Assembly (NCBI GenBank): GCA_965204775.1
Contig: CBDBFH010000019.1
Span: 4,394 to 68,393 of the forward strand
From: Alphaproteobacteria bacterium
GTDB lineage: Bacteria > Pseudomonadota > Alphaproteobacteria > JAPOUT01 > G958296285
Length of the DNA: 64,000 nt
Direction of reading: 5' to 3'
The notes under the pieces are model-generated. The model was not told the DNA's origin. It did not search any database and was given only the letters and a program-made list of their open reading frames with translations. Numbering within the stretch: position 1 is the first letter of the stretch; every line of letters begins with the position of its first letter. The translations under genes were made by a program, and so were the position numbers. Shown here piece by piece: positions 21,595-36,286 of the stretch.

Positions 21595-23048
21595 GGGACG
21601 GCGCGGGACCGGCGCCGGGCGAGGTTCTCGATTTCTGGTTTGAGGCCGGCGCCCGGCGCTGGTTCGGTTCTCACCCGGCCTTTGACCGGGCGATTGCTTG
21701 GCGCTTCGGCGGCCTGCTGGCCGCGGCGCGGGGCGATCAGCTGGAGGAGTGGAGGCAGACCCCGCAAGGCGCGCTGGCTTTGGTGATCGTGCTTGACCAA
21801 TTTGCGCGCAACATTGGCCGGGGCACGGCAGAGGCTTTTGCCGCCGACCGGCAGGCGCTGGCGGCGGCGCGCGCGGCGATCGGGCGCAGGCTTGATCTTG
21901 AGATGCCGGAAGCGGCGCGGGTCTGGTTTTACATGCCCTTCATGCATGCCGAGGACCGGGCGGCGCAGGCGGAGGGGCTGCCCTATTTTGCCGAACGGAT
22001 CAGCGCGCCGGAGACGCTGCAATTTGCCCGCCGCCACGCCGAGGTGATTGCCCGTTTTGGCCGCTTCCCCCACCGCAACCGGATTTTGGGGCGGGTGAGC
22101 AGCGCGGCGGAGGCGGATTTTCTGGAATCGGGCGGCGGCTTTGACGCGGATGCCCCCGCCCCGGCCTTTGTCCGCACCGGCCAGGGCGTCCGGCTGGCCT
22201 GCGAGGTCTACGATCCGCCGGAGAAGACGGACAAAGCGCCGGTTTTGCTGATACGCGGTCTGGGAACCCAGCTGATTATGTGGCCCTATGAGCTGATCGA
22301 GGGCTTGTGCCGGACGGGACGGCGGGTGGTGATTTTTGACAACCGGGATTGCGGCCTCTCAGACAGGTGTCCGCAAGGGGGTTATGGGCTGGCCGACATG
22401 GCGGCGGACGCAGCCGGCCTGCTTGACGGGTTGAAGATTCCGGCGGCCCATGTGATCGGCATCTCGATGGGGGGGATGATCGCGCAGCATATGGGGTTCG
22501 GCTTTGGGCCGCGGGTTGTCAGTTTGACCTCGATCATGTCGACGACCGGCAACCGTGGGCTTTCGCGCGCCGCGCCAGAGGTTTTGGCCCGGGTGATGGC
22601 GCCGGGGGCGGCGGGCGAGGGGGCGGCGGCGGCGATTGCCCGCCTGGTCTCAGGTCTGGAGGCGACCGGCTCGCCGGGGTTTGCGACGCCGCCCGATGAG
22701 CTGCGGCGGATGGCGCGGATGGCCTATGAGCGCGCCTGGGCGCCTGAGGGGGTGGCGCGCCAGCTGCGGGCGATTGAGGCCGATGGCGACCGCCGGCAAC
22801 GTCTGGGCGCGATCGGCGCGCCGGCCCTGGTTATACATGGACGTGACGACCGGCTGATTCCGCCGGACGGCGGCGAGGATACGGCGCGCGCGATTCCCGG
22901 GGCGCGGCTTGCGCTGGTGTCCGGCATGGGGCACGATATGGCGCGCGGTCTTGTGCCGCACATTCTGGCGCAGCTTGCGCCCCATCTGGACCGTAGCGAG
23001 GGAGGATCCGGCGATGACGGCGATCAAGGCGAACGGCATCACGATTGA
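21591..23048 (+). CDS. fusion protein: N-terminal DUF924 domain + C-terminal alpha/beta hydrolase
   Basis: The first ~185 aa carry the DUF924 signature (FWF..W.. RFGRFPHRNRILGR). The remainder is an alpha/beta hydrolase (VLLIRGLG, GISMGGMIAQ). Single uninterrupted 485-aa ORF. Confidence 0.7.
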   Translation: MRDGAGPAPGEVLDFWFEAGARRWFGSHPAFDRAIAWRFGGLLAAARGDQLEEWRQTPQGALALVIVLDQFARNIGRGTAEAFAADRQALAAARAAIGRRLDLEMPEAARVWFYMPFMHAEDRAAQAEGLPYFAERISAPETLQFARRHAEVIARFGRFPHRNRILGRVSSAAEADFLESGGGFDADAPAPAFVRTGQGVRLACEVYDPPEKTDKAPVLLIRGLGTQLIMWPYELIEGLCRTGRRVVIFDNRDCGLSDRCPQGGYGLADMAADAAGLLDGLKIPAAHVIGISMGGMIAQHMGFGFGPRVVSLTSIMSTTGNRGLSRAAPEVLARVMAPGAAGEGAAAAIARLVSGLEATGSPGFATPPDELRRMARMAYERAWAPEGVARQLRAIEADGDRRQRLGAIGAPALVIHGRDDRLIPPDGGEDTARAIPGARLALVSGMGHDMARGLVPHILAQLAPHLDRSEGGSGDDGDQGERHHD

Positions 23049-23928
23049 ATACGAGACGTTTGGCGACAGGAGCGATCCGGCGCTTTTGCTGGTGATGGGT
23101 CTGGGGGGGCAGTTGACGCTGTGGCCGGAGGCTTTTTGCCGACTTCTGGCGGACAGGGGCTTTTACGTGATTCGCTATGACAACCGGGACATCGGCCTGT
23201 CGGAGAAGTTTGACAGCGCGGGGCTTCCTGATCTGGCGGCGGCGATGGCGGCGGCCTATGGAGGCAAGAAGCTGACGCCGCCCTATAGTCTGGCCGACAT
23301 GGCGGCGGACGGGATCGGTCTGCTGGATGGGCTGGGGATCGAGCGGGCGCATATTGCCGGGGCCTCGATGGGGGGGATGATTGTTCAGCATATGGGCTTT
23401 GGCTTTCCGGAGCGGGTTTTGAGTTTGACCTCGATCATGTCGACGACGGGCGACTTGTCTTTGCCGCAGCCGTCGCCTGAGGTTTTGGGGGCCTTGCTGG
23501 CCCCGGCGGCGCCGCTGGAGGACCGGGAAGCGGTCATCGCGCAAGGGATCAAGCTGTGGCAGACGATTGGCTCGCCGGGGTATCCGCAGGATGAAGCGGA
23601 GTTGCGCAGGCGGGTTGGCGAGATGGTGGAGCGCTCCTATCACCCTGCCGGGGTTGCGCGGCAGATGGTGGCGATCATGGCGGACGGCTCGCGGCGCGAG
23701 CGTCTGAAGGGCGTGCGTGCGCCCAGCGTTGTTTTGCATGGGCGTGCCGATCCGCTTGTTCTGGTTCAAGGCGGCGAAGACACCGCGGCGCATATTGAGG
23801 GCGCGGAGCTGCGGATGATCGAGGGCTGGGGCCATGATCTGCCGGAGGCTTTGTTTGAGCAGATTGCCGACGGGATTGCGAGCGCGGCGCGGCGGGCGGA
23901 TTCGGCGGCGGGCTTGGCGGCGGAATAG
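23014..23928 (+). CDS. alpha/beta hydrolase (tandem paralog of the hydrolase domain of the upstream gene)
   Basis: Extended near-identical motifs with the upstream gene (ADMAAD..GLLDGL, SMGGMI.QHMGFGF, LTSIMSTTG). Start at MTAIKANG overlaps the upstream gene by 35 bp. Confidence 0.8.
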   Translation: MTAIKANGITIEYETFGDRSDPALLLVMGLGGQLTLWPEAFCRLLADRGFYVIRYDNRDIGLSEKFDSAGLPDLAAAMAAAYGGKKLTPPYSLADMAADGIGLLDGLGIERAHIAGASMGGMIVQHMGFGFPERVLSLTSIMSTTGDLSLPQPSPEVLGALLAPAAPLEDREAVIAQGIKLWQTIGSPGYPQDEAELRRRVGEMVERSYHPAGVARQMVAIMADGSRRERLKGVRAPSVVLHGRADPLVLVQGGEDTAAHIEGAELRMIEGWGHDLPEALFEQIADGIASAARRADSAAGLAAE

Positions 23929-23930
23929 AC

Positions 23931-24007
23931 GCGCCCGTAGCTCAGCCGGATAGAGCACCGGATTCCTAATCCGGGGGCCGCAGGTTCGAATCCTGCCGGG
24001 CGCACCC
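23931..24007 (+). tRNA. tRNA-Arg (anticodon CCU)
   Basis: GCGCCCG acceptor, D-arm UAGCUCAGCCGGAUAGAGCA, anticodon loop UUCCUAA, T-arm GGUUCGAAUCC, 3' CGGGCGC-A-CC. Confidence 0.9.
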
Positions 24008-24029
24008 CTATCCGATCCGAGGAGGCGGC

Positions 24030-25148
24030 ATGAACAACCTGACGCCGGCAGACGACTATCCGCTGCACCAGACCGCCGAGCCGATCGCTTTTGCCGGCGC
24101 GGACCGCAATTTTTACGACCGCTTCTTCTTCAACGGCTATGACGCCGGACAGGATGTCTTTTTTGCCGCGGCGCTGGGCGTCTATCCCCAGCTCAACGTC
24201 ATGGACGCCGCCGTCTGCCTGTCGCTCGACGGGACGCAATACAATCTGCGCGCCTCGAAAGACATGAAGATGGACAGGCTCAATCTTCAAGTCGGGCCGA
24301 TTCGGATCACGCTCGCCCAGCCGCTTGCCCGCACCCTGATTGAGGTCGCCGACAACCCCCACGGACTGAGCGGGCATCTGGAAGCGCGCGCGCGCCACCC
24401 GGCCATTGAAGAGCCGCGCTTCACCCGGCGCATCGGGCCGCGCGGATTTATGGATTACACCCGCCTTACGCAAAACATCAGCTGGCAGGGGTCGCTGACT
24501 CTTAAAGGGCGGAAAATCGATCTCACCGGCTTCCAGGGCACCCGCGACCGCAGCTGGGGGGTGCGCCCGGTCGGGGCAGCCGATCCGCAGCCGCCGTCCC
24601 GGGAGATGCAATTCTACTGGCTGTGGACGCCCGCCAATTTCGCCGGCCACGCCCTGTTCTGCCACAGCAACGACGACGCGCAGGGCGCGGCATGGAACCG
24701 GCGCGCCGTGCTGGCGGATCTGGCGCGGGGCGCGCAGCAGCAAACGCATTTCCGCCGCGTTGCGCTCAGCCCGGCCTACCAAAGCGGCACGCGGCGGATT
24801 GAATCGCTCGGCCTCGAACTGCGCGAAGGGGATCAAAGGATTGAGGCGCAGATGGAAGCGACCGGGCGGCTCTTCTATATGAGCGGGCTAGGCTACACCC
24901 ACCCGCACTGGTCGCATGGTCTTGATCACGGCGCGCTGGAGGTCGGGTTTGACGAGATGGAGCTGGACAAGGCGGAAGCGCAATTGCGCTCCGGCACGAT
25001 GCATCATCTGCATGTGCAGGCTCTGAGCCGGGTCGCGCTGATGCGGGGCGGGGAGCGCTATGAGGGGAGCGGCGTGATTGAGCAGTTGTTCATCGGCCCC
25101 CATGCGCCGAGCGGCTTTGCGGGGCTGCTCGACCGGATCACGGACTGA
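24030..25148 (+). CDS. hypothetical protein (372 aa), conserved-looking but unrecognised
   Basis: High-GC coding-like ORF immediately downstream of tRNA-Arg. Stop overlaps the next gene's start (TGATG). No motif I can name. Confidence 0.5.
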   Translation: MNNLTPADDYPLHQTAEPIAFAGADRNFYDRFFFNGYDAGQDVFFAAALGVYPQLNVMDAAVCLSLDGTQYNLRASKDMKMDRLNLQVGPIRITLAQPLARTLIEVADNPHGLSGHLEARARHPAIEEPRFTRRIGPRGFMDYTRLTQNISWQGSLTLKGRKIDLTGFQGTRDRSWGVRPVGAADPQPPSREMQFYWLWTPANFAGHALFCHSNDDAQGAAWNRRAVLADLARGAQQQTHFRRVALSPAYQSGTRRIESLGLELREGDQRIEAQMEATGRLFYMSGLGYTHPHWSHGLDHGALEVGFDEMELDKAEAQLRSGTMHHLHVQALSRVALMRGGERYEGSGVIEQLFIGPHAPSGFAGLLDRITD

Positions 25149-26188
25149 TGGCGGGGCTTCCCGATCATCCCGACAAATTTGATCCGGACTGGCTGGCGGG
25201 CAAGCTGGGGCGCGCGGCGGGGTCGCTGCGGGGCTGGACGCTTCAGCCGGTCGGCACCGGCCAGATGGGCGACAGTTACCGGCTGGTGCTGGACTGGGCG
25301 GGCGGGTCCGGGCGGCCGGCGACGATCATCGCCAAATGCCCGGCGGCGGACCGGCAAAGCCGCGAGACCGGGCGGCGGCTGCACAGTTATGAGGTTGAGG
25401 TGCGCTGGTATGAGCGGTTTGCGGCGCGGGCGAAGATTCGGGTTCCGCACTGTTATTTCACCCGGCTGGACGCGGCGGGCGATTTTGTTCTTCTGATGGA
25501 GGATGTCGCGCCGGCGCGGGCCGGCGACCAGCTTGCCGGGGGCACGGCGGCGCAGGTGCGTCTGGCGATTTCGGAGATTGCGCATTTGCATAATTTTCGG
25601 TGGAACGATCCGGCTCTGGTCGGGATTGACTGGCTGAATTACACGCGTGGCAACCGCGGATTTTTGCGCGAGTTTATTGCCCAGTGCTATCCGGAATGGC
25701 GGCGGCGCTATGCGGGTCGGCTTGACCGGGAGGTTCTGGAGATGGGGGCGGCGCTGGTGGCACGCCTTGAGCGCTATTTTGGCGATCGCGGTGCGCCGCT
25801 GGCGATCACCCACAATGATTTGCGTCTGGACAATATTCTGTTCACCGACGCGGCGGGGCGGGCGGTGATTGTTGACTGGCAGACGATTGGGGCGGGTGCG
25901 CCGATGAGCGATGTTGCCTATTGCATTGGGACCAGTTTTGCCGATCCGGCTTTGCGGGCGGGTGCGGAAGCGGGTTTGGTGGAGCATTATGTTTCGCTGC
26001 TGACGGGGTCCTATGATGGGGAGCGAGCCTGGCGGGATTACCGCTTTGGGGCCTTTGGCGGTTTTGTGATGGCGGTGGTTGCAGCCCAGCTGGTTGAGCG
26101 GACCGGTCGGGGTGACGAGATGTTTGCGGTGATGGCCGAGCGTTCGGGCTGGCAGGCGCTCCATCTTGACAGCCTCGCGCTGTTGTAG
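25148..26188 (+). CDS. phosphotransferase family protein (APH/ChoK-like kinase fold)
   Basis: Brenner motif HNDLRLDN and DW..IG (metal-binding D) typical of aminoglycoside/choline-kinase-like phosphotransferases. Confidence 0.75.
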   Translation: MAGLPDHPDKFDPDWLAGKLGRAAGSLRGWTLQPVGTGQMGDSYRLVLDWAGGSGRPATIIAKCPAADRQSRETGRRLHSYEVEVRWYERFAARAKIRVPHCYFTRLDAAGDFVLLMEDVAPARAGDQLAGGTAAQVRLAISEIAHLHNFRWNDPALVGIDWLNYTRGNRGFLREFIAQCYPEWRRRYAGRLDREVLEMGAALVARLERYFGDRGAPLAITHNDLRLDNILFTDAAGRAVIVDWQTIGAGAPMSDVAYCIGTSFADPALRAGAEAGLVEHYVSLLTGSYDGERAWRDYRFGAFGGFVMAVVAAQLVERTGRGDEMFAVMAERSGWQALHLDSLALL

Positions 26189-26238
26189 ATTGGAGCTAGC
26201 GCTGTTCAGAAGCTAACGCCCTGCCGACGGACAAACAT

Positions 26239-26274
26239 CAGCCGGATAGAGCATCGGACTCCTAATCTGGGGGC
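26239..26274 (+). pseudogene. decayed partial copy of tRNA-Arg(CCU) (D-arm to variable-loop segment only)
   Basis: CAGCCGGATAGAGCATCGGACTCCTAATCTGGGGGC matches positions ~12-47 of the intact tRNA-Arg at 23931 with 3 mismatches. The acceptor 5' end and T-arm are missing. A GC-poor sequence begins immediately downstream. Confidence 0.55.
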
Positions 26275-27050
26275 GTAAGTGGTGCCCTGTTAGATTGGGG
26301 ACGCAATGCCCATACTCCCACGCCTTTGCCCTCCGGCATGTAGAAGAGGTCTAGACCACCGCGATAGTTATCAGAGTCCGACGAATGATCCTCTAGGGTA
26401 CGTCGCACTACTGCCTCAAGTGTTCTGGGAACTGAACGCCCGGCGTTGCGACGCTCTTTCTTTATTTCGCGGTAAATGCTGTGTAGCGAAGCCTTCCCGC
26501 CGAGGTGCGAAAGGGTGGCCTTTACATCGTCGCGCCAAGTCACGGTCCCGTCCTCTCGAAACGTTTCATCAAACTCTCCAGTTCCTTCCGTATCCACCTC
26601 GCCTGTCGCTATTCCTCGTCTTGTTGCAATCTTCTTCGGGTCACGTAAATCGGCAACGGGCCGACGCCCGCTCAATTGATCACGGTAGAGCCAATTGACC
26701 CATGCGTTTTCAGTCTTTGCGCCTATTGCCCTGCTGAGCTCGTTTAGGCTCCGAAAGACACGTCCATCTCCTTGCAACACCCAACTGCCGTCACGAGCTT
26801 GCGCTCGATACTCAACCCCGAGGTAAGTGCGAAAAATCTCGAACCCTTGTGCGAAGTGGACACCATGCCGAGCGTCGTAGAAACCCATCCCTCCACTCGG
26901 CGGAGTCGGAGGGGCAGAGGAAGAGTCATCCCGCCTAGGTCCTTGGCAACCCAAGAATCTGTGCAGGATTTCATCCTCTGTGTTCTCATCCGCCCTCCTA
27001 AGGGTCCAGATTCTCGCGAACACGTCTGTCGAGACCTGAATGGCGCGCAT
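26262..27050 (-). CDS. hypothetical protein (262 aa) in low-GC insert; C-terminal region resembles Mrr_N/HARE-HTH winged-helix domain
   Basis: GC visibly lower than neighbours. The C-terminal SLHSIYREIKKERRNAGRSVPRTLEAVVRRTLEDHSS...GGLDLFYMPEGKGVGVWALR resembles the N-terminal winged helix of Mrr-type restriction proteins. The 3' end runs into the tRNA remnant, so the true C-terminus is uncertain. Confidence 0.5.
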   Translation of the reverse strand: MRAIQVSTDVFARIWTLRRADENTEDEILHRFLGCQGPRRDDSSSAPPTPPSGGMGFYDARHGVHFAQGFEIFRTYLGVEYRAQARDGSWVLQGDGRVFRSLNELSRAIGAKTENAWVNWLYRDQLSGRRPVADLRDPKKIATRRGIATGEVDTEGTGEFDETFREDGTVTWRDDVKATLSHLGGKASLHSIYREIKKERRNAGRSVPRTLEAVVRRTLEDHSSDSDNYRGGLDLFYMPEGKGVGVWALRPQSNRAPLTPPD

Positions 27051-27095
27051 TCTCTACTACCTCCATTTCCTCTCTTATAACTCCATATATATAGT

Positions 27096-27389
27096 ATGGA
27101 GGTGGGTAGGGTCAAGAAGAAACTTTCCGGGATTCTAGAGGTAGCAGAATCTCAAGTAATACACTATATACGCGAGCAATTTTGGCCTCCACAGCACAAA
27201 GCGGGGCTATTCGACAATTACTCAACGGGCTATGACGAACGCACGGAGAGGTTCCTTGAACGGTGTGTTCAGTATCTTCACCCGCGCTCATATAGCGCGG
27301 TTGACTTCCGCTACCCTCCACGCCTAGCGGCGGCACAGGCTACCGTTTTGCTCTTCGACTCATTTTACAATCGATGCAGGTCGCGATAG
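27096..27389 (+). CDS. small hypothetical ORF (97 aa) in low-GC insert, possibly a gene fragment
   Basis: AT-rich ORF divergent from 26262-27050. Its last ~8 codons overlap the convergent high-GC gene. No recognisable domain. Confidence 0.25.
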   Translation: MEVGRVKKKLSGILEVAESQVIHYIREQFWPPQHKAGLFDNYSTGYDERTERFLERCVQYLHPRSYSAVDFRYPPRLAAAQATVLLFDSFYNRCRSR

Positions 27390-28057
27390 AGCCGGTCAAA
27401 GGCATAGGCCCCCAGTTCCAGCCCCTGCTCGATCTGCCCGCGCTTGCGCGGATTATCCCAGTAAGGCTCCAGAAGAGCGAAAAACTCCTGCGAATGCTGA
27501 ATGTCCAGCTTGGTGTGCAACTTGTAATGCGCCAGATTGTCCTTGCCAACCCAGCCCCGCTCAATGACGATCCGGGCCATCAGCGCGGAAATGTCGGCAT
27601 AGGCCCGCTCGATCACCCCCATGCAGCCAATCGCCACCGGCAGGGCGTCCAGCGCGCAGGAGGCCGCCAGAACGCAGTTGAAGGCGCGAACCGGCGGCGC
27701 AAGCGGCTGCTGCTCAAAGCCCGCCTCGCTGCCGATCGACCGCAAAAAGGCTTTGAAGGTCGTGGCGTGAAACGCCTTCTCCTCCAGATTGCCGTGCTCT
27801 TCGAGAATATTGTGGATGATGTCGAGCCGGTCGCGCGCATGCGGGATTCGCCCGGCCAGCGCCGCCATCGGACGCGAGAAGAAGATCACCGCAAAATAAA
27901 ACTGCTCCTGACTCTCCCGAAACCGCTCAAGCCCGGTGCCGCCGCCGCGCAGGCCGGCAAAATACGGGTTGCGCATAATCGCGACCCTGTCCAATATCTG
28001 CTCGGCGCGCGCGGCGGCGCGCGGCGCGGAATCGGGTTTTGCGGTCATCGTGGTCAT
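27365..28057 (-). CDS. iron-containing redox enzyme family protein (heme-oxygenase-like fold; PqqC/TenA/CADD-like)
   Basis: 230 aa. Helical protein with E..H and HxxxFK-type motifs (EEHGNLEEKAFHATTFKAFL) reminiscent of the TenA/PqqC family. Confidence 0.6.
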   Translation of the reverse strand: MTTMTAKPDSAPRAAARAEQILDRVAIMRNPYFAGLRGGGTGLERFRESQEQFYFAVIFFSRPMAALAGRIPHARDRLDIIHNILEEHGNLEEKAFHATTFKAFLRSIGSEAGFEQQPLAPPVRAFNCVLAASCALDALPVAIGCMGVIERAYADISALMARIVIERGWVGKDNLAHYKLHTKLDIQHSQEFFALLEPYWDNPRKRGQIEQGLELGAYAFDRLYRDLHRL

Positions 28058-28183
28058 GCGTCAATGTCTCCGGTCCTGGGGTGAATGCGTCCGGCCATTT
28101 TGGGCCGCGGCGGGCGGCGGCGGCGATCACATTGGCAACAAGAAATCTTGCGGGGCCGCCCGCCCGCGCCGCAGGCGGGGGCG

Positions 28184-29035
28184 ATGAGGGGGCGGCGGCT
28201 GATCTTCCCGGCGCTGGCGGCAGGCTTGGCCGCGGCGCTGTGGGGCTTTTGGCTGGAGCCTGCGCGGGTGACGATTCGCGAGCACCGGCTGGAACTGGCC
28301 GGATGGCCGGAAGCTTTGTCGGGCCTGCGGGTGGCGCTGCTGACCGATCTGCATATCGGCGCGCTCCATATGACGCCGGAGAAACTGGACCGGATCGTCG
28401 CGCTGACCAATCAGGCGGAGGCGGAGATGATCGTGCTGGCCGGCGATTATGTCGCCGGGCGGGCTTTGGTGGGGGCCTCGTTTGTCGCGCCGGAAGCGAT
28501 TGCCCCGGCGCTGGCGCGGCTGCGCGCGCCGCTTGGGGTCTGGAGCGTTCTGGGCAATCACGACCGGCTGCTGGGCCCGGCGCGGATGGCCGCCGCCTTC
28601 ACCGCCCATGACCTCGCCCTGATTGAGGACCGGGCGGTAAAAATCGCCCGCGGCAATGCGGATTTCTGGCTCTTGGGGATTTCGGATTTTTATACCGGCC
28701 CCCATGATTTCGCCCGCGCGCTGGAGGCGGTGCCCGCGGGCGCGCCGGTTGTGGCCCTGACTCACTCGCCGGATATTTTTCCCGAGCTGCCCCGGCGGAT
28801 CATCCTGACTTTGGCCGGGCACACCCATGGCGGGCAGGTCTATCTGCCGTTTTTGGGCCGGCTGGTGGTGCCCTCGCGCTATGGCCAGCGCTACGCCAGG
28901 GGCTTTGTGCTGGAGAAGGGACATGCGATCTTTGTCGGATCAGGTCTGGGGACGACCCTGCTGCCTGTCCGGTTTTTGACCCCGCCGGAGATCAGTCTGG
29001 TGACCATTGTGCGGGGAGAGGGAGGAGACTCATGA
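28184..29035 (+). CDS. metallophosphoesterase (calcineurin-like phosphoesterase)
   Basis: N-terminal TM/signal-like segment, then the DxH..GDY..GNHD..H..GHTH motif series of calcineurin-like phosphoesterases. Confidence 0.8.
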   Translation: MRGRRLIFPALAAGLAAALWGFWLEPARVTIREHRLELAGWPEALSGLRVALLTDLHIGALHMTPEKLDRIVALTNQAEAEMIVLAGDYVAGRALVGASFVAPEAIAPALARLRAPLGVWSVLGNHDRLLGPARMAAAFTAHDLALIEDRAVKIARGNADFWLLGISDFYTGPHDFARALEAVPAGAPVVALTHSPDIFPELPRRIILTLAGHTHGGQVYLPFLGRLVVPSRYGQRYARGFVLEKGHAIFVGSGLGTTLLPVRFLTPPEISLVTIVRGEGGDS

Positions 29036-29946
29036 GCGAGTTGATTTTGCACCATTATGACGCCTCGCCTTTTTCGGAGAAGGTGCGCCTGGTGATGGGG
29101 CTGAAGGGTCTGGCCTGGCGGTCGGTCGAGATTCCGGTGATCATGCCCAAACCGGATTATGTCGAACTGACCGGCGGCTACCGGCGCACGCCGTCGCTGC
29201 AGATCGGGGCGGATATTTATTGCGACACGAATTTGATTTTGCCGGTTCTGGACAAGATCAAGCCCGCGCCCGGCATCTGTGGCGATGCGCCGCGCGGGGC
29301 GGGGATGGTGGCGGCGGCCTGGGCCGAGGAGAGTCTGTTCTGGCCGGTGGCCAGTTATGTGATCGGCCTGAATGCGGAGTCGATTCCGGCGGCTTTCGCC
29401 GCCGACCGGGCGAAGATGCGCGGGGTTGCGCCGCCGACGGCTGCGGAGGCCCGCGCCGCCGCCCAGCAGGCGGCGCCGGAGATTCGGCGCGGACTGGACT
29501 GGATCGCCTCGATGCTGGAGGCCAGAGCCTGTCTGTTTGGGGCAGAGCCGGGTCTGGCCGATTTTGCGGTCTATCACTGCCTGTGGTTTCTGGCGCGCGC
29601 GCCGCAGGGCAAGGCGGAACTGGCCCGGCACGCAGGCGTCGGGCGCTGGATGGCGCGGATGGCGGAACTGGGACACGGCGCGCGCAAGGCGATGGAGGCG
29701 GGCGAAGCGATTGAGATCGCCAAAGCCGCGCGGCCCGCCGCCCTGGAGCCGGGCGCGGCGGACGAGACGGCGCCGCCGGTCGGGGCGCAGGCGTGCATCC
29801 GGGCGGTGCGCTTCGGGCGCGACCCGGTGAGGGGCGAGATTGTCCATGTCTCGGCGGATGAGATCGCGCTGCGGCGCGAATCGGCGCGGGCGGGCGAGGT
29901 GATTGTCCACTTTCCCCGCCGGGGCTATACTGTTCACCCGGTTTGA
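29032..29946 (+). CDS. glutathione S-transferase family protein (long form)
   Basis: N-terminal thioredoxin-like GST domain (LHHYDASPFSEKVRLVMGLKGL) and a helical C-terminal domain. ATGA overlap with the upstream gene. Confidence 0.8.
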   Translation: MSELILHHYDASPFSEKVRLVMGLKGLAWRSVEIPVIMPKPDYVELTGGYRRTPSLQIGADIYCDTNLILPVLDKIKPAPGICGDAPRGAGMVAAAWAEESLFWPVASYVIGLNAESIPAAFAADRAKMRGVAPPTAAEARAAAQQAAPEIRRGLDWIASMLEARACLFGAEPGLADFAVYHCLWFLARAPQGKAELARHAGVGRWMARMAELGHGARKAMEAGEAIEIAKAARPAALEPGAADETAPPVGAQACIRAVRFGRDPVRGEIVHVSADEIALRRESARAGEVIVHFPRRGYTVHPV

Positions 29947-29972
29947 AAAGATAAGCCGAGGGTCGCTGAAGG

Positions 29973-30491
29973 ATGGTCAAGATGAGAAAAGGGGCGGGCG
30001 GTTTTCTGCTGGCGGCGGCGCTGGGTCTGGCGGCGTGCGGCGGCGAGGACGGGCCGGACGGGGTGGTCGAGATCAAACTTCTGGTCACCAGCGATGCCGG
30101 ACGGGTGATGGGGACGATCAGCTGGCGGGACACGGATGAGGGGATCGTTTTTGCGCCCGATCTGCGCGGGGTTCCGCGCGGGCAACACGGCTTTCACATT
30201 CACGCGTTCCCCGATTGCGGCGATGCGGGCCGGGCGGCGGGGGGCCACTACGACCCGGAAGAGACCGGACGGCATGAAGGGCCGGAGGGCGACGGCCATC
30301 TGGGCGATCTTCCGGCGCTCTTTTCCGATGAGGGGGGCCGGGTGACCCAGGCGGTCACCGCGCCCCGGCTGGCGGGGGTGGATATTCGGGGGCTGTCTTT
30401 GGTGATCCATCTGGGCGGGGATAATTATTCCGACACGCCCCGGCCTCTGGGCGGGGGCGGGGCGCGTCTGGCCTGCGGGGTGATCGAATGA
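29973..30491 (+). CDS. sodC: Cu/Zn superoxide dismutase SodC (lipoprotein-type signal peptide)
   Basis: GFHIHAFPDCG, GGHYDP, GDLPAL and LVIHLGGDNYSD are canonical SodC motifs. N-terminal LAACGG lipobox. Confidence 0.9.
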   Translation: MVKMRKGAGGFLLAAALGLAACGGEDGPDGVVEIKLLVTSDAGRVMGTISWRDTDEGIVFAPDLRGVPRGQHGFHIHAFPDCGDAGRAAGGHYDPEETGRHEGPEGDGHLGDLPALFSDEGGRVTQAVTAPRLAGVDIRGLSLVIHLGGDNYSDTPRPLGGGGARLACGVIE

Positions 30492-30763
30492 GCGGCGCGC
30501 CGCCGCCGGACGGCGCGGCGGGCGGCTATTGGAAGGCGGTGCTGAAACTGACCGCGGGTCTGCTGGCGGTCTGGTTTATGGCCTCCTACGGGGCGGGGAT
30601 TTTGTTCCGCGAGGCTCTGGACCGGTTCCAGCTGGGGGGCGCGCCGCTGGGCTTCTGGTTTGCCCAGAACGGGGCGATCTATATTTTCGTTGCGCTGATC
30701 TTTATCTACTGCCGGGCGATGAAGCGGATCGAACGGCGCTTCGGCATTGAAGACTCGGACTAG
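30488..30763 (+). CDS. DUF4212 small membrane protein (putative small subunit of the downstream solute:sodium symporter)
   Basis: 91 aa with two TM helices. Always-adjacent partner of the ActP/VC_2705-type SSS transporters. ATGA overlap with sodC. Confidence 0.8.
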   Translation: MSGAPPPDGAAGGYWKAVLKLTAGLLAVWFMASYGAGILFREALDRFQLGGAPLGFWFAQNGAIYIFVALIFIYCRAMKRIERRFGIEDSD

Positions 30764-30775
30764 TCCGGCGGCGGT

Positions 30776-32596
30776 TTGATGAGTCAGCTGGTCTGGACGA
30801 TCATCTTTGTCGCCGGGACTTTCGCGCTCTATATCGGGATTGCGGTCTGGGCGCGGGCGGGCTCGACCCGGGAGTTTTACGTAGCCGGGCGCGGCGTCCA
30901 CCCGGTGGTCAACGGCATGGCGACCGCCGCCGACTGGATGTCGGCGGCCTCCTTTCTGTCGATGGCCGGTCTGATCGCCTTTCTGGGCTATGGCGGTTCG
31001 GTCTATCTGATGGGCTGGACGGGGGGCTATGTTTTGCTGGCGCTTTTGCTCGCGCCGTTTTTGCGCAGTTTCGGCAAATTCACGGTGCCCGACTTTGTCG
31101 GCGACCGCTACTACTCAAACTGGGCGCGGGGGATTGCGGTGGTCTGCGCGCTGTTTGTCTCCTTCACCTATATCGCCGGACAGATGCGCGGGGTCGGGGT
31201 GGCCTTTTCCGGCTTTCTGGGGATTCCCTATGAGGCCGGGGTTCTGGCCGGGATGGCGGTGGTGTTTTGCTACACGGTTCTGGGCGGGATGAACGGGATC
31301 ACCTATACGCAGGTTGCGCAATATTGCGTTCTGATTTTCGCCTACACGGTTCCGGCGATTTTCATTTCGCTGATCATCACCGGCAATCCGGTTCCGCAGC
31401 TGGGCTTCATCTCCGATGTGCGGGGCGGCGGGGTTTCGATGCTGGAGAAGCTGAATATGGTTCTGCAGGATCTGGGCTTTCTGGAATACACCTCGACCGA
31501 CAAATCCATGCTTGACGTTCTGTGCATCACGGCGGCGCTGATGTTTGGGACGGCGGGTCTGCCGCATGTGATCATTCGCTTTTTTACGGTGCGCTCGGCG
31601 CAGGCGGCGCGGGTTTCGGCGGGCTGGGCGCTGCTGTTCATCGCCGCGCTTTACACGGCGGCCCCGGCGGTGGGGGCCTTTGCGCGGCTTAATTTTATCG
31701 ATTCGGTGAATGAGGCGTCCTATATCGCGGACGGGGAGGATTATGCGGCGCGGGCGGCGGAGATTCGGGCGGCGGGCGGCAAGCCGGTCCCGGAATGGTA
31801 CAAGTCCTGGGAGAAGACCGGGCTGGTCCGCTATGACGACCGCAACGGCGACGGGGTCATGCAGTATCGCGGGCCGGATGCGCCGGACGGGCTGGCCAAT
31901 GAGGTGGAGCCGAATCGCGACATTTTCGTTCTGGCCAATCCGGAGATTGCGCAGCTGCCGCATTGGGTGATTGCGCTGGTGGTGGCCGGGGGTCTGGCGG
32001 CGGCGCTTTCGACTGCGGCGGGGCTTTTGATGGTGATTTCTTCGGCGGTCAGCCATGACCTGTGCCGGCGGACGCTGTTTACGGGCATGAGCGACGCGGC
32101 GGAGCTGCGGGTTGCGCGGGCTTCGGCGGCGGGGGCGGTTCTGGCCGCCGGGCTGCTGGGGATTTACGCTTCGCAGCTGGGTTTTGTTGCGCAGGTGGTG
32201 GCGTTCGCCTTTGGTCTGGCGGCGGCCTCGCTGTTTCCGGTTTTGTTTCTGGGGATTTTCTGGAAGCGGATGAACCGGGAAGGGGCGATTGCGGCGATGG
32301 TGACGGGGCTGGCCTCGACCTTTTCTTATATTGTTTATTTCAAGTTTCTGGGGGGCGGGCCGGATCAATGGTTTTTGGGGGTGTCGCCGGAGGGGATCGG
32401 TTTTGTCTTTATGTGGCTGGCGCTGGGGGTTGGGGTGATTGTTGCGCTGGCGAGCGCGCCGCCGCCGCGGGCGGTGCAGGATCTGGTTGAGGAGATTCGC
32501 GCGCCCGGCAGGGCGGCCCCGACGCGGGGGGCGGCCCCGGCGCGGGGTGCGGCCCTGGCGCGGGGCGCGGCCCCGGCTCGGGGGGCGGCGGAATGA
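30776..32596 (+). CDS. sodium:solute symporter family transporter (ActP-like cation/acetate symporter subfamily), with repeat-rich C-terminal tail
   Basis: 606 aa, 13-14 TM helices, and SSS family motifs (GRGVHPVVNGMATAADWMSAASFLSMAG). The C-terminal ~30 aa consist of AAPxRG repeats. Confidence 0.85.
   Translation: MMSQLVWTIIFVAGTFALYIGIAVWARAGSTREFYVAGRGVHPVVNGMATAADWMSAASFLSMAGLIAFLGYGGSVYLMGWTGGYVLLALLLAPFLRSFGKFTVPDFVGDRYYSNWARGIAVVCALFVSFTYIAGQMRGVGVAFSGFLGIPYEAGVLAGMAVVFCYTVLGGMNGITYTQVAQYCVLIFAYTVPAIFISLIITGNPVPQLGFISDVRGGGVSMLEKLNMVLQDLGFLEYTSTDKSMLDVLCITAALMFGTAGLPHVIIRFFTVRSAQAARVSAGWALLFIAALYTAAPAVGAFARLNFIDSVNEASYIADGEDYAARAAEIRAAGGKPVPEWYKSWEKTGLVRYDDRNGDGVMQYRGPDAPDGLANEVEPNRDIFVLANPEIAQLPHWVIALVVAGGLAAALSTAAGLLMVISSAVSHDLCRRTLFTGMSDAAELRVARASAAGAVLAAGLLGIYASQLGFVAQVVAFAFGLAAASLFPVLFLGIFWKRMNREGAIAAMVTGLASTFSYIVYFKFLGGGPDQWFLGVSPEGIGFVFMWLALGVGVIVALASAPPPRAVQDLVEEIRAPGRAAPTRGAAPARGAALARGAAPARGAAE
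32513..32584. repeat. 18-bp tandem repeat x4 (GCGGCCCCGGCGCGGGGN) at the 3' end of the symporter gene
   Basis: Four near-identical 18-mers encode (A)APARGA repeats in frame. Confidence 0.8.
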
Positions 32597-32636
32597 GTTT
32601 TATTTCCGGCCTTTGGTTGGGAAGATGATGGCCGCT

Positions 32637-33017
32637 TTATTTTTCGGAGTCCGGGGAAGCGGGGATGTGGAAACGGACGCCGAGGAGTTCGTCGAAGGGC
32701 GGCAGGGGCAATTTTTCCTCTTCGAATTCGAGGTTTTGGGGGGCGGGGGAGATGAGGTGGCTATAGCCGGATTTTTTGAGTTCCTCGCGGATAGCGGTGA
32801 GGAGGTTGCGGCAATATTCGTCCTCCAGGAGGCGGCAGAAGGTATTGAGGTGATCGGTGATGATATAGGGGGCGGATTTCCGGTAGTGCCGGGCGTAGTT
32901 GAGGGCGGCGTCCCGGATTTTACCGGGCGGCGGGGGGCGGGCGGATCGGGGCTGGAGGAAAACGCCGATGACAAAGCCAAAGAATCCTGCGCCGAGGAGA
33001 TAGGCGATGATGTCCAT
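32637..33017 (-). CDS. hypothetical membrane-anchored protein (126 aa)
   Basis: The N-terminal hydrophobic helix MDIIAYLLGAGFFGFVIGVFL is followed by a soluble domain. GC intermediate. No recognisable motif. Confidence 0.4.
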   Translation of the reverse strand: MDIIAYLLGAGFFGFVIGVFLQPRSARPPPPGKIRDAALNYARHYRKSAPYIITDHLNTFCRLLEDEYCRNLLTAIREELKKSGYSHLISPAPQNLEFEEEKLPLPPFDELLGVRFHIPASPDSEK

Positions 33018-33071
33018 TGTGGGCCTCCCGGTTCCCGGCGGGTCTGTTCCCGCGTTTATGTCAGGGTTGTA

Positions 33072-33113
33072 GCATATAAGTATCTACCACTCAAGGGGTT
33101 TTGATACTTATAT
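33072..33113. promoter_or_regulatory. perfect 12-bp inverted repeat CATATAAGTATC-N18-GATACTTATATG upstream of the XRE regulator gene (putative operator)
   Basis: Located 40 bp upstream of the XRE-family gene start in an AT-rich segment. A second short palindrome GGCCAT..ATGGCC overlaps the start codon. Confidence 0.45.
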
Positions 33114-33152
33114 GATGTCGCATATAGTCTACATTTCGGCCATGCAACCAAT

Positions 33153-33386
33153 ATGGCCGATCTGTTGTGGATTATCGGACGCCGGGTCTTCAAGTTCCGG
33201 AAAGAGCGGGAGTGGTCGCAAGAGCGGCTGTCTTTCGAGTCGGGCCTGCACCGCGCCTATATCAGCGGGGTCGAGACCGGGGAGCGGAACCCGACGGCCA
33301 AGACGCTGGCTAAATTAGCGAAAGCGCTGAGGGTCTCGCCCGCCGATTTACTGCCGGGCCACACCAGATGGACGCTTCCCGACTAA
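33153..33386 (+). CDS. XRE-family helix-turn-helix transcriptional regulator (77 aa; controller-protein-like)
   Basis: SQERLSFESGLHRAYISGVETGERNPTAKTLAKLAKAL is a canonical Cro/C1-type HTH. Confidence 0.75.
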   Translation: MADLLWIIGRRVFKFRKEREWSQERLSFESGLHRAYISGVETGERNPTAKTLAKLAKALRVSPADLLPGHTRWTLPD

Positions 33387-33444
33387 AACCAGGGGGTTCA
33401 AGGGGGACGAGTCCCCCTTGAGAAAGAAAACCGAAAACCCGCGC

Positions 33445-34077
33445 CTACCAGATATCCGGCTTGCGCAGTGGCGGGTTTCCCGGAACCGGATTGGGCAATT
33501 GGCAGACTTTCAAGACCCCGGTTCTGATCGGCTTCATACGATTATTGCTGGCTTCACGCAGTTGCCTGGACACATGCCAACGCCTTCTGACAGGCGCAAG
33601 AAGCATGATGGTTTTTTGGGAGTGCGCTTTTTTTGTCAATTCGATTGCCTCGGTAAAATCGCTGTCATTGGAAATAATCACAGCGCAGTCATATTCATCC
33701 CGCCAGCCATCATTTAACAGGTGAACGGCAAGATTGACGTCCGATCCTTTCTCCTCCGTCTTGATGACCCGCACCTTTTCCTGCGGATTATCCGCGCGAG
33801 GCATCCATCTTTTTTCACTCATGAAACTGCCATTATAAATCTCCAATTCCGGGATATGCCGCCTTAATGCAAGCCAGTAGATTTTCTGGCGTTCTGGCTG
33901 TTGAGAATCTCCTTCACGCGGCTTGACCGGAGCGGTGAAGAATTTAATCCTGTCCACCGCGCAGTCCGGGGGAAGCAGACGCAGGCAAAGTTTTTTCAGA
34001 TCAAGCCATTTATATTGGGTGTCTTTGAGCGCTCCATAATAAAGATTAAACCCGTCAACATAGACAAAGGTGCGCAT
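33445..34077 (-). CDS. NYN-domain (LabA-like, PIN-related) putative ribonuclease
   Basis: FVYVDGFNLYY start and EKGSDVNLAVHLLND ... DCAVIISNDSDFTEAI acidic motifs of the NYN/DUF88 fold. Visibly low GC. Confidence 0.75.
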   Translation of the reverse strand: MRTFVYVDGFNLYYGALKDTQYKWLDLKKLCLRLLPPDCAVDRIKFFTAPVKPREGDSQQPERQKIYWLALRRHIPELEIYNGSFMSEKRWMPRADNPQEKVRVIKTEEKGSDVNLAVHLLNDGWRDEYDCAVIISNDSDFTEAIELTKKAHSQKTIMLLAPVRRRWHVSRQLREASNNRMKPIRTGVLKVCQLPNPVPGNPPLRKPDIW

Positions 34078-34116
34078 CGCATAAGGCTCTCTACAATATT
34101 TTCAGGTGCGTCGCGA

Positions 34117-34150
34117 AAATACATCCCTAAAAAGCAGGGGCCCCCCGAAG
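34117..34150 (-). terminator. rho-independent terminator downstream of the monooxygenase gene
   Basis: On the minus strand: GGGGCCCTCTTCGGGGGGCCCC hairpin followed by TGCTTTTTA. Confidence 0.55.
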
Positions 34151-34274
34151 AGGGCCCCGCACCCTGAAGACGAAACAACAGGGGGTATCATTAATGTAAT
34201 AATGGGAGAAGTTGCATTTAAAGTCAACGTCTTTTTCAGGCGAATTTTCCTTGTTTTCCAAGGGTTTGCGGGCT

Positions 34275-35765: not shown

Positions 35766-35809
35766 TCTCTCCCCCTTGTCTTTTTGTCCTTCGCGCTACG
35801 CCCGGCGGA

Positions 35810-36223
35810 TCATTGCGGATCCTGCGCGAAGACCGGCAGCGTCTCGTCGATATGGGCCCAGGGCGGCGCCGAGCTTTTCCACAGAGTCATCGACGGCTTG
35901 AGCCAGGAGGCGTCGTCCAGCGTCCCGGCCTTGATCCCCCAGATCGCCGGCGTGGCTTTTATGTCGGAGAAGAGGGGGGTGCCGCATTTGGCGCAGAACC
36001 GGCGGGTGACGATATTGCCTTTCCGGGTTTTGCAGTCATAGGCCTGGGTTTCGCCGCGGGTGAGTTCAAACGCATCACGGGCGACGATCAGCACCGCCGC
36101 GGCATTGCCGCCCGAAACATAGCGGCACTCGCGGCAGTGACAGTTGATGAACGCCATCGGCTCGCCCGTGCAGCGATAGCGCACCGCGCCGCACATGCAG
36201 CCGCCTTCAAACGGGGTGGTCAT
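35810..36223 (-). CDS. GFA family protein (glutathione-dependent formaldehyde-activating / CENP-V-like Zn-binding)
   Basis: CMCGAVRY...CHCRECR...CAKCGTPLF cysteine pattern of the GFA family. Confidence 0.8.
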   Translation of the reverse strand: MTTPFEGGCMCGAVRYRCTGEPMAFINCHCRECRYVSGGNAAAVLIVARDAFELTRGETQAYDCKTRKGNIVTRRFCAKCGTPLFSDIKATPAIWGIKAGTLDDASWLKPSMTLWKSSAPPWAHIDETLPVFAQDPQ

Positions 36224-36286
36224 TTGCGCTCTCCTTCCTTTTCCCTTTGTCCGTCCTTGAGCCTCGTCCGGGACGGGAGCAGTCTA

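Follow-up and report, generated by a model that had tools for sequence, protein, structure and literature searches.

The tRNA-Arg(CCU) gene is a known attachment site for mobile elements, as realized for argW of Escherichia coli, which is used by KplE1 and HK620 (PMC2951348, PMC3509656), and the KplE1 repeat at argW spans the 3'-terminal 16 nt of this tRNA gene (PMC2951348). CIMEs (cis-mobilizable elements), described along with the tandem accretion of integrative elements, keep complete att sites, and a related ICE or IME can mobilise them (PMC5704250, PMC6323972). With respect to cargo, Rv3168 and Rv3169 of Mycobacterium tuberculosis form an operon repressed by the TetR-family protein Rv3167c (PMC5340868), while fusions of a winged-helix domain with a nuclease have been described as 6mA-dependent type IV enzymes (PMC11037411).

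The locus analysed here, located in a stretch of 64,000 nucleotides of an alphaproteobacterial contig (the window), carries an intact tRNA-Arg(CCU) gene and, 2.3 kb downstream at the edge of GC-poor DNA, a partial copy of the same tRNA (Table 1). We tentatively favour to read this tRNA gene as a decayed insertion hotspot devoid of an integrase and the partial copy as a truncated att-type repeat. Nothing mobile is present at the locus today.

Table 1. Coordinates of the features of the tRNA-Arg(CCU) locus in the window
Feature	Position	Strand	Basis or remark
Alpha/beta hydrolase, left synteny anchor	22909..23928	+	Pfam Abhydrolase_1
tRNA-Arg(CCU) gene, intact	23931..24006	+	ARAGORN (anticodon CCT); Rfam RF00005, 74 bits
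Lineage-specific variable region, 12.3 kb	24007..36286		tRNA 3' side to carD; absent from L098
Rv3169-family protein, 372 aa	24030..25148	+	NCBIfam NF053593
APH/EcKL-type kinase, 346 aa, second operon gene	25148..26188	+	Pfam APH, EcKL
GC-poor islet (1.18 kb), between two convergent host genes	26189..27364		composition
Spacer from kinase stop to tRNA fragment, 49 nt	26189..26237		GC 55%; without similarity elsewhere in the window
Partial tRNA-Arg(CCU) copy, non-functional scar	26238..26274	+	tRNA positions 12-48 (D-arm to variable loop)
262-aa protein, uncharacterised conserved family	26262..27050	-	stop codon inside the tRNA fragment
Conserved motif upstream of the 262-aa gene (TTGAC... ACCTCCATA ... 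ATGGAGGT ... ATG)	27048..27125	-	six-locus alignment
97-aa ORF	27096..27389	+	overlaps the 3' end of the neighbouring gene
Haem-oxygenase-like gene (Haem_oxygenas_2), 230 aa, right islet bound	27365..28057	-	Pfam, 65 bits
Second GC-poor tract in the variable region	33060..34270		GC 51%; NYN gene and small HTH ORF
NYN-domain gene	33445..34077	-	Pfam NYN; GC3 0.55
carD, right synteny anchor	36287..37306	-	Pfam CarD_C, CarD_TRCF_RID

That the tRNA gene marks an insertion site is seen by comparison with L098, the sole syntenic comparator found (about 60% protein identity). Gene order is shared between Methyltransf_33 and the hydrolase on one side and between carD and ileS on the other, with the hydrolases 61% identical and likewise abutting tRNA-Arg and the CarD proteins 61-65% identical, CarD of L098 being directly beside tRNA-Arg. 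As only 109 bp holding tRNA-Arg(CCT) alone separate the hydrolase stop from the carD stop in L098, the DNA from 24007 to 36286 counts as extra DNA that starts at the tRNA 3' end; the 20.9 kb of L098 examined encode none of its proteins. The locus is thus an insertion site at a tRNA, but because the single comparator is distant and its tRNA-Arg lies on the opposite strand, the 12.3-kb difference could reflect ordinary rearrangement over a long divergence. Furthermore, all window proteins looked up stand alone in their clusters at 90% identity and the events are therefore undatable. The sequence-only reading had expected an insert of about 1.1 kb; the two-gene module and the islet are indeed absent from the relative, but so is the entire remainder of a 12.3-kb mosaic. 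Within this mosaic, only the islet and the tract at 33060-34270 are atypical (GC about 0.51-0.55, GC3 0.55), while the other genes have a GC3 of 0.73-0.82 and the bulk GC lies merely 3-5 points under the backbone. The integrase and the further att repeats that might have been expected were not encountered, as no recombinase Pfam domain occurs in the ORFs of the variable region, tblastn with integrases and the resolvase from related islands gave no match or recombinase fragment, and the far boundary at carD is without a repeat. Absence of a surviving integrase fits an islet that had been called old.

The fragment aligns ungapped to 23942-23978 of the intact gene with 34 of 37 identical positions (92%), all three differences being transitions; an earlier description of this copy with three mismatches holds, with its start to be moved from 26239 to 26238 and its length from 36 to 37 nt. 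Its lack of acceptor and T-arm is equally confirmed, since no second copy of tRNA positions 49-76 is found anywhere in the window. The repeat is specific to tRNA-Arg(CCU) because the anticodon arm is included. Neither ARAGORN under relaxed settings nor Rfam calls the fragment as a tRNA, its RNA fold is nothing exceptional, and it is inert today. Both edges are sharp, with only four of the 11 upstream nucleotides and two of five in the T-stem region matching, and this abrupt loss of identity indicates breakpoints rather than point-mutational decay. Whereas a tRNA pseudogene would show similarity over its whole length with scattered mutations, identity is 92% inside the 37 nt and none outside, so that the gradual decay initially proposed gives way to an internal piece with two sharp edges. 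Other duplicated segments near the fragment were not found.

The 372-aa protein between the two tRNA copies, initially considered unrecognised, is a member of the Rv3169 family (333.6 bits against an NF053593 cut-off of 150, E 1e-99, residues 4-355 on profile positions 1-351) with a best homologue of 70% identity, and the subsequent kinase matches APH (55 bits, cut-off 23.2) as well as EcKL (46.7 bits, cut-off 22). Of 80 metagenomic loci, about 40 have homologues of the two next to each other in the same order; the pair is kept together across lineages while the flanking genes vary by lineage, and in other lineages the kinase is found beside tRNA-Thr or tRNA-Ala, which gives the pair the appearance of a mobile unit. 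The pair is homologous to the M. tuberculosis operon Rv3168-Rv3169, where an APH-type phosphotransferase and a protein of the Rv3169 family are likewise encoded next to each other, but here the order is reversed with the Rv3169-like gene first, a TetR regulator is not adjacent and the pair is located directly behind a tRNA. The tRNA gene itself begins 2 nt past the hydrolase stop codon and ends 23 nt ahead of the next start codon; the hydrolase, the tRNA, the Rv3169-family gene and the kinase are probably co-transcribed. The two tRNA copies do bracket this module, as previously stated, but the module is host-like by composition (GC3 0.81 and 0.73, respectively; GC 65%) and a conserved operon.

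The AT-richer DNA noted after the remnant up to about 27364 is, on the other hand, foreign. Its GC of 49-56% over 26189-27364 is below the 65% of the two-gene module and the 68-69% of the syntenic backbone, its GC3 of 0.55 below 0.78 ± 0.06, and its gene belongs to a family with integrase, resolvase and Cas1 contexts. GC is uniform (54-60%) over the spacer, the fragment and the 262-aa gene. On the right, the islet reaches directly to the stop codon of the haem-oxygenase-like gene, which has a GC3 of 0.79 and, by alignment with homologues (covering residues 7-228 out of 230), an intact C-terminus, and a second repeat flanking the islet was not found. Of the two ORFs noted in this tract, one stands: the 97-aa ORF, with one marginal match (E 5e-4) in 1.84 billion representative proteins, absent from the protein collection and without counterpart at any related locus, is probably not a gene, and the 262-aa protein is encoded by the islet's one credible gene.

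This 262-aa protein, composed of an N-terminal two-helix, a RAMA-like and a winged-helix region, has 235 homologues with 44-59% identity and 32 invariant columns, and reaches the threshold of no Pfam, NCBIfam or PADLOC family. Its AlphaFold model (pLDDT 84) has sub-threshold Foldseek matches (E 0.02-0.07) to MPND, the CcrM C-terminal domain and forkhead domains, with the MPND-DNA and CcrM-DNA complexes as the best structural matches. A score of 13.6 bits against a cut-off of 35.2 places the protein outside RAMA (PF18755), which was matched by two of 31 family members (best E 0.0012). Compared with RAMA and winged-helix readers of modified DNA such as MPND, the CcrM C-terminal domain and the winged helix of DpnI and HhiV4I, the middle region is weakly RAMA-like, but the protein is without a nuclease, methylase or other catalytic domain. 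The C-terminal winged helix, which shares 31% identity with a section of a protein annotated as HNH endonuclease, resembles the winged helix-nuclease fusions (PMC11037411). The protein may be of a DNA-binding type and may regulate its own gene. The conserved upstream motif, not flagged by a strict sigma-70 scan of the window, is a putative promoter with operator.

Homologues of the 262-aa protein are found directly after an integrase and next to tRNA-Thr (L004), within an integrase island (L091), adjoining a resolvase (L003) and adjoining Cas1/PolB, with a casposon-type Cas1. At five loci (L006, L089, L092, L094 and L097) a homologue stands alone as a low-GC gene amid housekeeping genes, and the islet of L092 has at its flanks a 44/39-nt repeat of the target gene's 3' end (score 42, whereas shuffles reach at most 29). 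The tRNA-Arg fragment was found at none of the other loci of the family. In the favoured reading, the family is cargo typical of islands, which persists once the island itself is lost.

In its general build the locus resembles tRNA-associated islands and cryptic prophages, with extra DNA that runs from the tRNA 3' end and that a syntenic relative lacks, mosaic content of partly atypical GC in a decayed element, and a direct repeat of tRNA sequence inside or edging the inserted DNA; the target tRNA is even identical in type to that of the KplE1/CPS-53 remnant at E. coli argW. However, the sole repeat here is internal (positions 12-48) and not a direct repeat of the tRNA 3' end such as the 3'-terminal core of KplE1, neither integrase nor excisionase is present, and most of the 12.3 kb is host-like in codon usage with a repeat-less boundary at carD. 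With CIMEs the locus shares a short cargo between two att-like direct repeats without recombination genes, and with tandem arrays an internal repeat that parts two unlike segments. As one repeat is truncated, lacking the 3' third of the tRNA, two complete att sites are not available and mobilisation as a CIME is unlikely; equally, a related complete element is not known for this genome.

In the favoured reading, an element would have recombined with tRNA-Arg(CCU) and left an att-type direct repeat. The left edge of the fragment at tRNA position 12 would represent the limit of homology between attP and the tRNA, and the right edge at position 48 a later deletion that might have taken the T-arm, the acceptor part and the recombinase genes, so that the scar would now join two unlike segments, the host-like Rv3169-family/APH-kinase operon and the GC-poor islet. 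We infer this order of events, as well as the att origin of the repeat. The hotspot is supported by the extra DNA located 3' of the tRNA, the side that tRNA-targeting elements use for insertion, by the 262-aa homologues beside integrases, resolvase and Cas1/PolB together with the target-gene repeat in L092, and by the mobile-looking Rv3169/kinase pair with neighbours that vary by lineage. Further support comes from 32 contigs of IMG/VR that carry an intact tRNA-Arg(CCT), many near the contig end; against the favoured reading, a partial copy covering the part seen in the fragment occurs in none of these 32 viral-contig matches. The att-type nature of the repeat is weakened by its internal position in place of the 3' terminus of canonical tRNA att repeats, which demands one extra deletion, by the absence of a second repeat at the islet, and by a module between the repeats that is host-like in GC3, without spare DNA and packed against the tRNA, unlike a recent element.

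The sequence-only reading had left the choice between an att site and a second tRNA-Arg copy, of which the insertion site at a tRNA stands. A second complete tRNA-Arg(CCU) downstream of the kinase, into which a GC-poor element integrated before the redundant gene decayed to a fragment, would explain why foreign DNA begins directly 3' of the fragment, where integration takes place; relatives of the kinase locus do have a tRNA (Thr) downstream of the kinase with variable DNA 3' of it, and the intact copy at 23931 would render a second one dispensable. This course of events is nevertheless unlikely. Decay by point mutation should be graded, whereas the 34/37 identity stops sharply on both sides; an earlier tRNA duplication plus two separate deletions are needed, more events than for a truncated att repeat, L098 has one tRNA-Arg at the locus, and a displaced 3' tRNA piece is not found at the far end of the islet.

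With a similarly low probability, the fragment was imported with the foreign DNA, as a piece of a donor tRNA-Arg(CCU) or of an attP joined to the 262-aa gene, into the vicinity of an Rv3169/kinase operon that is native and never was an element. The host-like codon usage of that operon and the uniform GC of spacer, fragment and gene are in line with this possibility, as are the three positions at which the fragment differs from the L107 tRNA-Arg(CCU), equal in number to its differences from the resident gene, and the occurrence of both its T27 and T41 in natural tRNA-Arg(CCU) variants. An arrival 2.3 kb away from the resident tRNA-Arg(CCU) would, however, be a coincidence unless tRNA-directed, in which case import merges with the favoured reading. 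Moreover, the conserved gene end (WALR) is only 26 nt away from tRNA position 48, so that an intact tRNA and the gene could not have coexisted in a donor and the joint must be a secondary breakpoint, and the other loci of the family speak against a tRNA-Arg fragment travelling with the gene.

Still less probable is that the 262-aa family constitutes a compact, self-promoted and autoregulated single-gene unit, selectively kept or self-spreading after loss of its carrier, for example as a modified-DNA reader with addictive or defensive action, with the tRNA fragment and the L092 repeat as footprints of entry. Five independent solo low-GC insertions that extend from the -35 box through the stop codon, an upstream motif seemingly better conserved than the coding sequence and neighbours including integrases, a resolvase and a casposon-type Cas1 form the basis of this proposal. 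Slightly more doubtful again is an origin without site-specific recombination, by tandem duplication from inside the tRNA with subsequent deletion, or by use of a tRNA piece as filler in illegitimate repair upon insertion of the islet. The edges at positions without known integrase role (12 in the D-stem, 48 at the border of variable loop and T-stem) and the absence of an integrase and a second repeat would agree with such an origin, but the event count is equal to or above that of the other models, the independent evidence for the tRNA as insertion point is left unused, and no further segments are duplicated nearby. Chance or generic tRNA sequence, for which nothing speaks except D-arm sequences common to many tRNAs, is refuted by 34/37 identity including the CCU anticodon arm, a blastn-short E-value of 8e-10 (within 13.6 kb) and not a single second match in 100 dinucleotide-preserving shuffles.

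If the favoured reading is correct, the locus would be a further example of a decayed tRNA-gene insertion hotspot, of an ordinary kind and with little import for the genome, and its internal tRNA scar would be missed by annotation rules that seek 3'-terminal tRNA repeats alone. Its single unusual feature would be the uncharacterised gene for a predicted DNA-binding-type protein on a foreign piece. The family of this protein is widespread (at least 235 members), without a Pfam family or annotated function in the databases searched, and recurs as a surviving solitary foreign gene amid housekeeping genes. By model it seems to pair RAMA-like and winged-helix domains, which elsewhere are readers of DNA adenine methylation, and should its role be to sense modified DNA or to control mobile elements, it would make an inexpensive target for experiments.

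With regard to introns, the tRNA-Arg gene is uninterrupted, as stated before, but the intron assigned to a tRNA-Leu gene is not borne out, as tRNA-Leu(CAG) at 52351-52439 is a plain class II tRNA of 89 nt, uninterrupted as well, and Rfam gives no group I intron match within the window. The hydrolase upstream of tRNA-Arg is 304 aa long in the source's own gene call.

Downstream of the single intact tRNA-Arg(CCU) gene of the window, on which ARAGORN and Rfam agree, lies a 37-nt fragment that repeats window positions 23942-23978 within this gene ungapped with 34 of 37 nucleotides identical, as recovered by a repeat finder and by local alignment. The fragment corresponds to tRNA positions 12-48, comprising the second half of the D-stem, the D-loop, the entire anticodon arm and the variable loop, and its edges are sharp, with identity falling to 4/11 in the 11 nt of the left flank compared with the acceptor/D-stem and to 2/5 in the T-stem region. 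The sequence-only reading had thus rightly described a partial copy devoid of the acceptor 5' end and the T-arm, with a start off by one nucleotide (26239 instead of 26238). Chance similarity as the origin is excluded; a degenerate pattern of the block has just two sites in the window and a second site arose in none of 100 shuffles. Equally, a merely generic D-arm similarity, which would have undermined the reading, does not apply, since the CCU anticodon arm is part of the match. All three differences to the intact tRNA are transitions, two of which convert anticodon-stem G-C pairs into G-U pairs. No tRNA is called at the fragment by Rfam at E <= 1 or by relaxed ARAGORN, and the region folds no better than shuffled sequence on either strand (z-scores -0.9 and +1.2), so that a structured RNA or a terminator, of which none was found at the site, has been rejected. 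With its sharp edges, the included anticodon arm and the lack of a tRNA call and of a special fold, the fragment is real, specific and non-functional. A copy of the T-arm or the acceptor 3' strand was found nowhere in the window, including a T-arm past the islet, and further tRNA pieces are absent from 23800-37400. The tRNA-Leu gene believed to carry an intron encodes an ordinary 89-nt class II tRNA, and the whole window is free of group I introns according to Rfam.

Coordinates of the features at the tRNA-Arg(CCU) locus and at related loci (in the window unless another locus is named)
Feature	Coordinates	Strand	Remarks
Tandem alpha/beta hydrolase duplication	21591-23928		repeats at 901-bp spacing
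tRNA-Arg(CCU), intact	23931-24006	+	
Variable region	24007-36286		Rv3169-like/kinase pair, fragment and islet, second GC-poor tract; genes for haem-oxygenase-like protein, metallophosphoesterase, GST, Cu/Zn SOD, sodium:solute symporter, FMO-like oxidoreductase, GFA family
Rv3169-family protein gene	24030-25148		372 aa
APH/EcKL-type kinase gene	25148-26188		346 aa
GC-poor islet	26189-27364		
tRNA-Arg(CCU) fragment	26238-26274		
262-aa ORF	26262-27050	-	sole credible islet gene
12-codon extension of 262-aa ORF	26262-26300		
Upstream motif	27048-27125		
97-aa ORF	27096-27389		rejected as gene
Second GC-poor tract	33060-34270		GC 0.51; no recombinase
Small XRE-like HTH ORF	33144-33386	+	adjoins NYN-domain ORF
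NYN-domain ORF	33445-34077	-	GC3 0.55; in second GC-poor tract
tRNA-Leu(CAG)	52351-52439		
L098, 3-hydroxyacyl-CoA dehydrogenase gene	3639-4532		after ETF-alpha
L098, DUF924 and hydrolase genes	9448-10894		
L098, tRNA-Arg(CCT)	10908-10982		strand opposite to window
L092, direct repeat	4854-4897, 5846-5884		44/39 nt
L092, upstream motif	4925-5003		
L006, upstream motif	5935-6003		
L097, upstream motif	805-877		
L004 and L003, upstream motif	5925-6003		

The fragment is situated in the GC-poor islet, where GC amounts to 49-56% between the kinase stop (26188) and the stop of the convergent haem-oxygenase-like gene (27365), compared to 65% in the preceding two-gene module and 68-69% in the syntenic backbone. 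Windowed GC and codon usage thus confirm the suspected compositional drop, with a GC3 of 0.55 for the islet gene against 0.78, about four standard deviations under the window mean (61 ORFs). Among the two ORFs assigned to the insert, the 262-aa gene is credible, while the 97-aa ORF, absent from the protein collection and from every related locus and with a single marginal match among 1.84 billion representatives, is not counted as a gene. The 262-aa protein has 235 homologues of 44-59% identity and, as all 32 invariant columns are kept in the window copy, is probably functional. The stop codon of its gene falls within the tRNA fragment; the family C-terminus is usually WALR, and the window copy continues 12 codons beyond, into the fragment. 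The breakpoint at the fragment edge may also have cost the gene its native 3' end. A contig search with the haem-oxygenase-like protein gave just two matches (49% identity) without synteny.

The module bracketed by the tRNA copies is of a different nature. Both genes belong to known families: the 372-aa protein, previously called unrecognised, is a full-length match to the NCBIfam Rv3169 family (334 bits, cut-off 150), and its partner, as already proposed, is an APH-like kinase. In Mycobacterium tuberculosis, the APH-like kinase gene Rv3168 and Rv3169 constitute an operon under Rv3167c repression (PMC5340868). Searching metagenomes with the kinase gave 80 loci, in about 40 of which an Rv3169 homologue is located directly upstream in the same orientation, with no further neighbour in common with the window; the two genes therefore form a conserved unit. 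This unit resembles the host in codon usage (GC3 0.81 for the Rv3169-like gene and 0.73 for the kinase gene, compared to 0.78 +/- 0.06 for the 61 window ORFs) and is tightly packed, with 2 nt from the hydrolase stop to the tRNA and 23 nt from the tRNA to the Rv3169-like gene. Kinase homologues in the metagenome scan reach at most 58% identity, share no flanks and come without a tRNA-Arg. In other lineages they are likewise found beside tRNA genes (L009, L011, L013, L029, L033 and similar loci), either tRNA-Thr(GGT) with its 3' end toward the kinase at distances from 83 nt to 2.3 kb or tRNA-Ala(GGC) 0.4-1.5 kb upstream, which suggests that the module often resides at tRNA-linked variable spots.

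Exact-protein look-ups of window genes gave no matches, all window proteins looked up are singletons at 90% identity and a close relative of the source genome was not found; a protein 70% identical to the Rv3169-like protein (P0246) is encoded on a 1.85-Mb contig of a possibly closer genome. Synteny was assessed against one distant comparator, L098, reached via the best long-contig homologue of the upstream hydrolase, with a protein identity of about 60% and Parvibaculum as nearest named relatives. On the left, both loci share the order Methyltransf_33, RsfS, ETF beta and alpha, Abhydrolase_2, COQ7, DsbB, VTT, acyl-CoA synthetase, DUF924 and hydrolase, and on the right carD, ferredoxin, TerB, ribF and ileS. 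From hydrolase stop to carD stop, L098 has 109 bp containing tRNA-Arg(CCT) alone, whereas these anchors are 12.3 kb apart in the window; the additional DNA is located 3' of the tRNA-Arg and none of its proteins is encoded in the L098 DNA examined. At this locus, the DNA between tRNA and fragment is thus absent from a related genome, with respect to a single comparator at about 60% protein identity. The search for an integrase gave another result, as neither integrase nor resolvase nor a remnant of either is present in 24007-36286; equally, further att repeats were not detected, the islet being unflanked by a repeat on both sides and the window devoid of a T-arm copy. The second GC-poor tract is possibly another small foreign module.

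Several differences between the two loci accompany the anchors. The tRNA is on opposite strands in the window and in L098 while both flanks are collinear, indicating at least one inversion between the lineages or a tRNA replacement in one of them, and it is squeezed against a gene in each case, carD being 20 nt away in L098 and the hydrolase gene 2 nt away in the window. The window has two hydrolase copies in tandem, the first of them fused to DUF924 in one 485-aa ORF, while in L098 the DUF924 gene is separate and the hydrolase single. The 3-hydroxyacyl-CoA dehydrogenase gene of L098 has no counterpart at window positions 16568-16917.

The sharp fragment edges point to breakpoints rather than gradual gene decay, and a decayed integration hotspot with a truncated att repeat is the tentatively favoured origin, at somewhat less than even chance. 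The attP of an incoming element would have been homologous to tRNA-Arg from position 12 to the 3' end, such that integration would leave a downstream copy beginning where this homology begins, creating the left edge. A single later deletion would then have taken positions 49-76 with the following DNA, plausibly including the recombinase genes, creating the right edge and leaving no more than 26 nt between the fragment and the end of the 262-aa gene. Consistent with such a history, 12.3 kb of lineage-specific DNA begin at the tRNA, elements are known to use tRNA-Arg(CCU) as an att site, as with argW in Escherichia coli (PMC2951348, PMC3509656), 32 viral contigs carry an intact tRNA-Arg(CCT), many near the contig end, and the gene family of the islet is island cargo. 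On the other hand, canonical repeats at this tRNA are 3'-terminal, with 16 nt in KplE1 (PMC2951348), partial copies of the tRNA region in question are missing among the 32 viral-contig matches, and the segment bracketed by the tRNA copies has a native, streamlined look. A second tRNA gene that later decayed, as the sequence-only reading had it, is unlikely, as it requires an extra tRNA duplication plus two deletions; the reading's observation stands with small corrections and its interpretation in part. Joint import of fragment and islet is improbable to the same degree: GC is uniform across spacer, fragment and 262-aa gene, and foreign variants match the fragment at least as well as the resident tRNA does, but the nearness of the fragment to the resident tRNA would lack an explanation if integration was not tRNA-directed. 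A duplication that was not site-specific, or the capture of filler DNA, is very unlikely; the 49-nt spacer and the 26-nt joint show no patchwork duplication of other window sequence.

In its workings the locus is comparable to a cryptic tRNA island devoid of an integrase, or to several accreted islands, and it has in common with a CIME that att-like repeats enclose cargo while recombination genes are lacking (PMC5704250). As it differs from the canonical tRNA island in two defining features, the 3'-terminal repeat and the integrase, and from a CIME in lacking complete att sites, it is described as a decayed member of the tRNA-island kind, an ordinary kind rather than a new system.

Nine genomic contexts of the 262-aa family have been recovered, three of them mobile-element settings: a tRNA-Thr followed by an integrase and the homologue (L004/L005, without an attR repeat within the DNA examined at L004), an integrase island (L091) and a position adjoining a serine resolvase with Abi and type I R-M genes nearby (L003). 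The gene of the 59% identical homologue P0007 (JGI sample 3300047160) has a PolB-like gene on one side and Cas1 plus HNH on the other, with McrBC close by, a casposon-like setting. In five contexts the homologue stands solo between housekeeping genes, that is between a GcvT-type oxidoreductase gene and the his operon (L006), inside a cobalamin cluster (L089), between yqeY and a GIDA-family gene (L092), between SDR and thiF (L094) and between a phosphatase gene and argC (L097), and each time the low-GC tract spans just the promoter-like TTGACA box to the stop codon. The L092 islet has an imperfect direct repeat at both sides, a duplicate of the neighbouring GIDA-family gene's 3' end (score 42, shuffle maximum 29). 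A repeat of the target gene's 3' end is the classical footprint of site-specific integration into that end, and the L092 repeat is such an att-like footprint, with no integrase present. An origin of the gene from phages or plasmids has been rejected, with no phage matches, one partial plasmid match and one partial viral contig, and both are essentially free of the family; PADLOC and PHROGs gave no usable match for islet genes. The family is uncharacterised, and its repeated solo survival might be the only feature worth a specialist's second look. It seems quite improbable that the gene represents a self-sufficient unit which is kept by selection or spreads by itself and which reads modified DNA.

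An AlphaFold model built on 31 sequences (mean pLDDT 84) predicts two helices in a short N-terminus, a middle domain rich in beta structure (56-135) and a winged helix at the C-terminus (170-250), with a pTM of only 0.45 that makes relative domain placement unreliable. The best Foldseek matches in the PDB are an MPND-DNA complex, a CcrM-DNA complex and forkhead domains, all weak (E 0.02-0.5); a PDB sequence search returned spurious matches alone. Sub-threshold Pfam matches are RAMA in the middle region, DUF7557 and SeqA_N, the latter two presumably at the N-terminus given the nature of these families, as the scan listed no positions for them. The protein did not qualify as a RAMA family member and contains no catalytic domain; the sole plasmid match aligns residues 125-250 at 31% identity to part of an annotated HNH endonuclease. 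Adenine-methylated DNA is, according to published descriptions, read by RAMA and by winged helices of this sort (PMC4738411, PMC9963953, PMC11037411). As a best guess, a lead rather than a result, the predicted fold might belong to a regulator or sensor that binds DNA and travels with mobile elements.

Upstream of the gene, TTGACA, ACCTCCATACCTCTATA and ATGGAGGT precede the ATG in this order, with ATGGAGGT a few bases before it. A strict sigma-70 scan did not flag the window copy of this motif, which is common to loci whose proteins are only about 55% identical and, by eye, is apparently better conserved across distant hosts than the coding sequence. The half-sites CCTCCATA and TATGGAGG represent an inverted repeat around the -10 region, and the motif might constitute a promoter with a putative operator for autoregulation.
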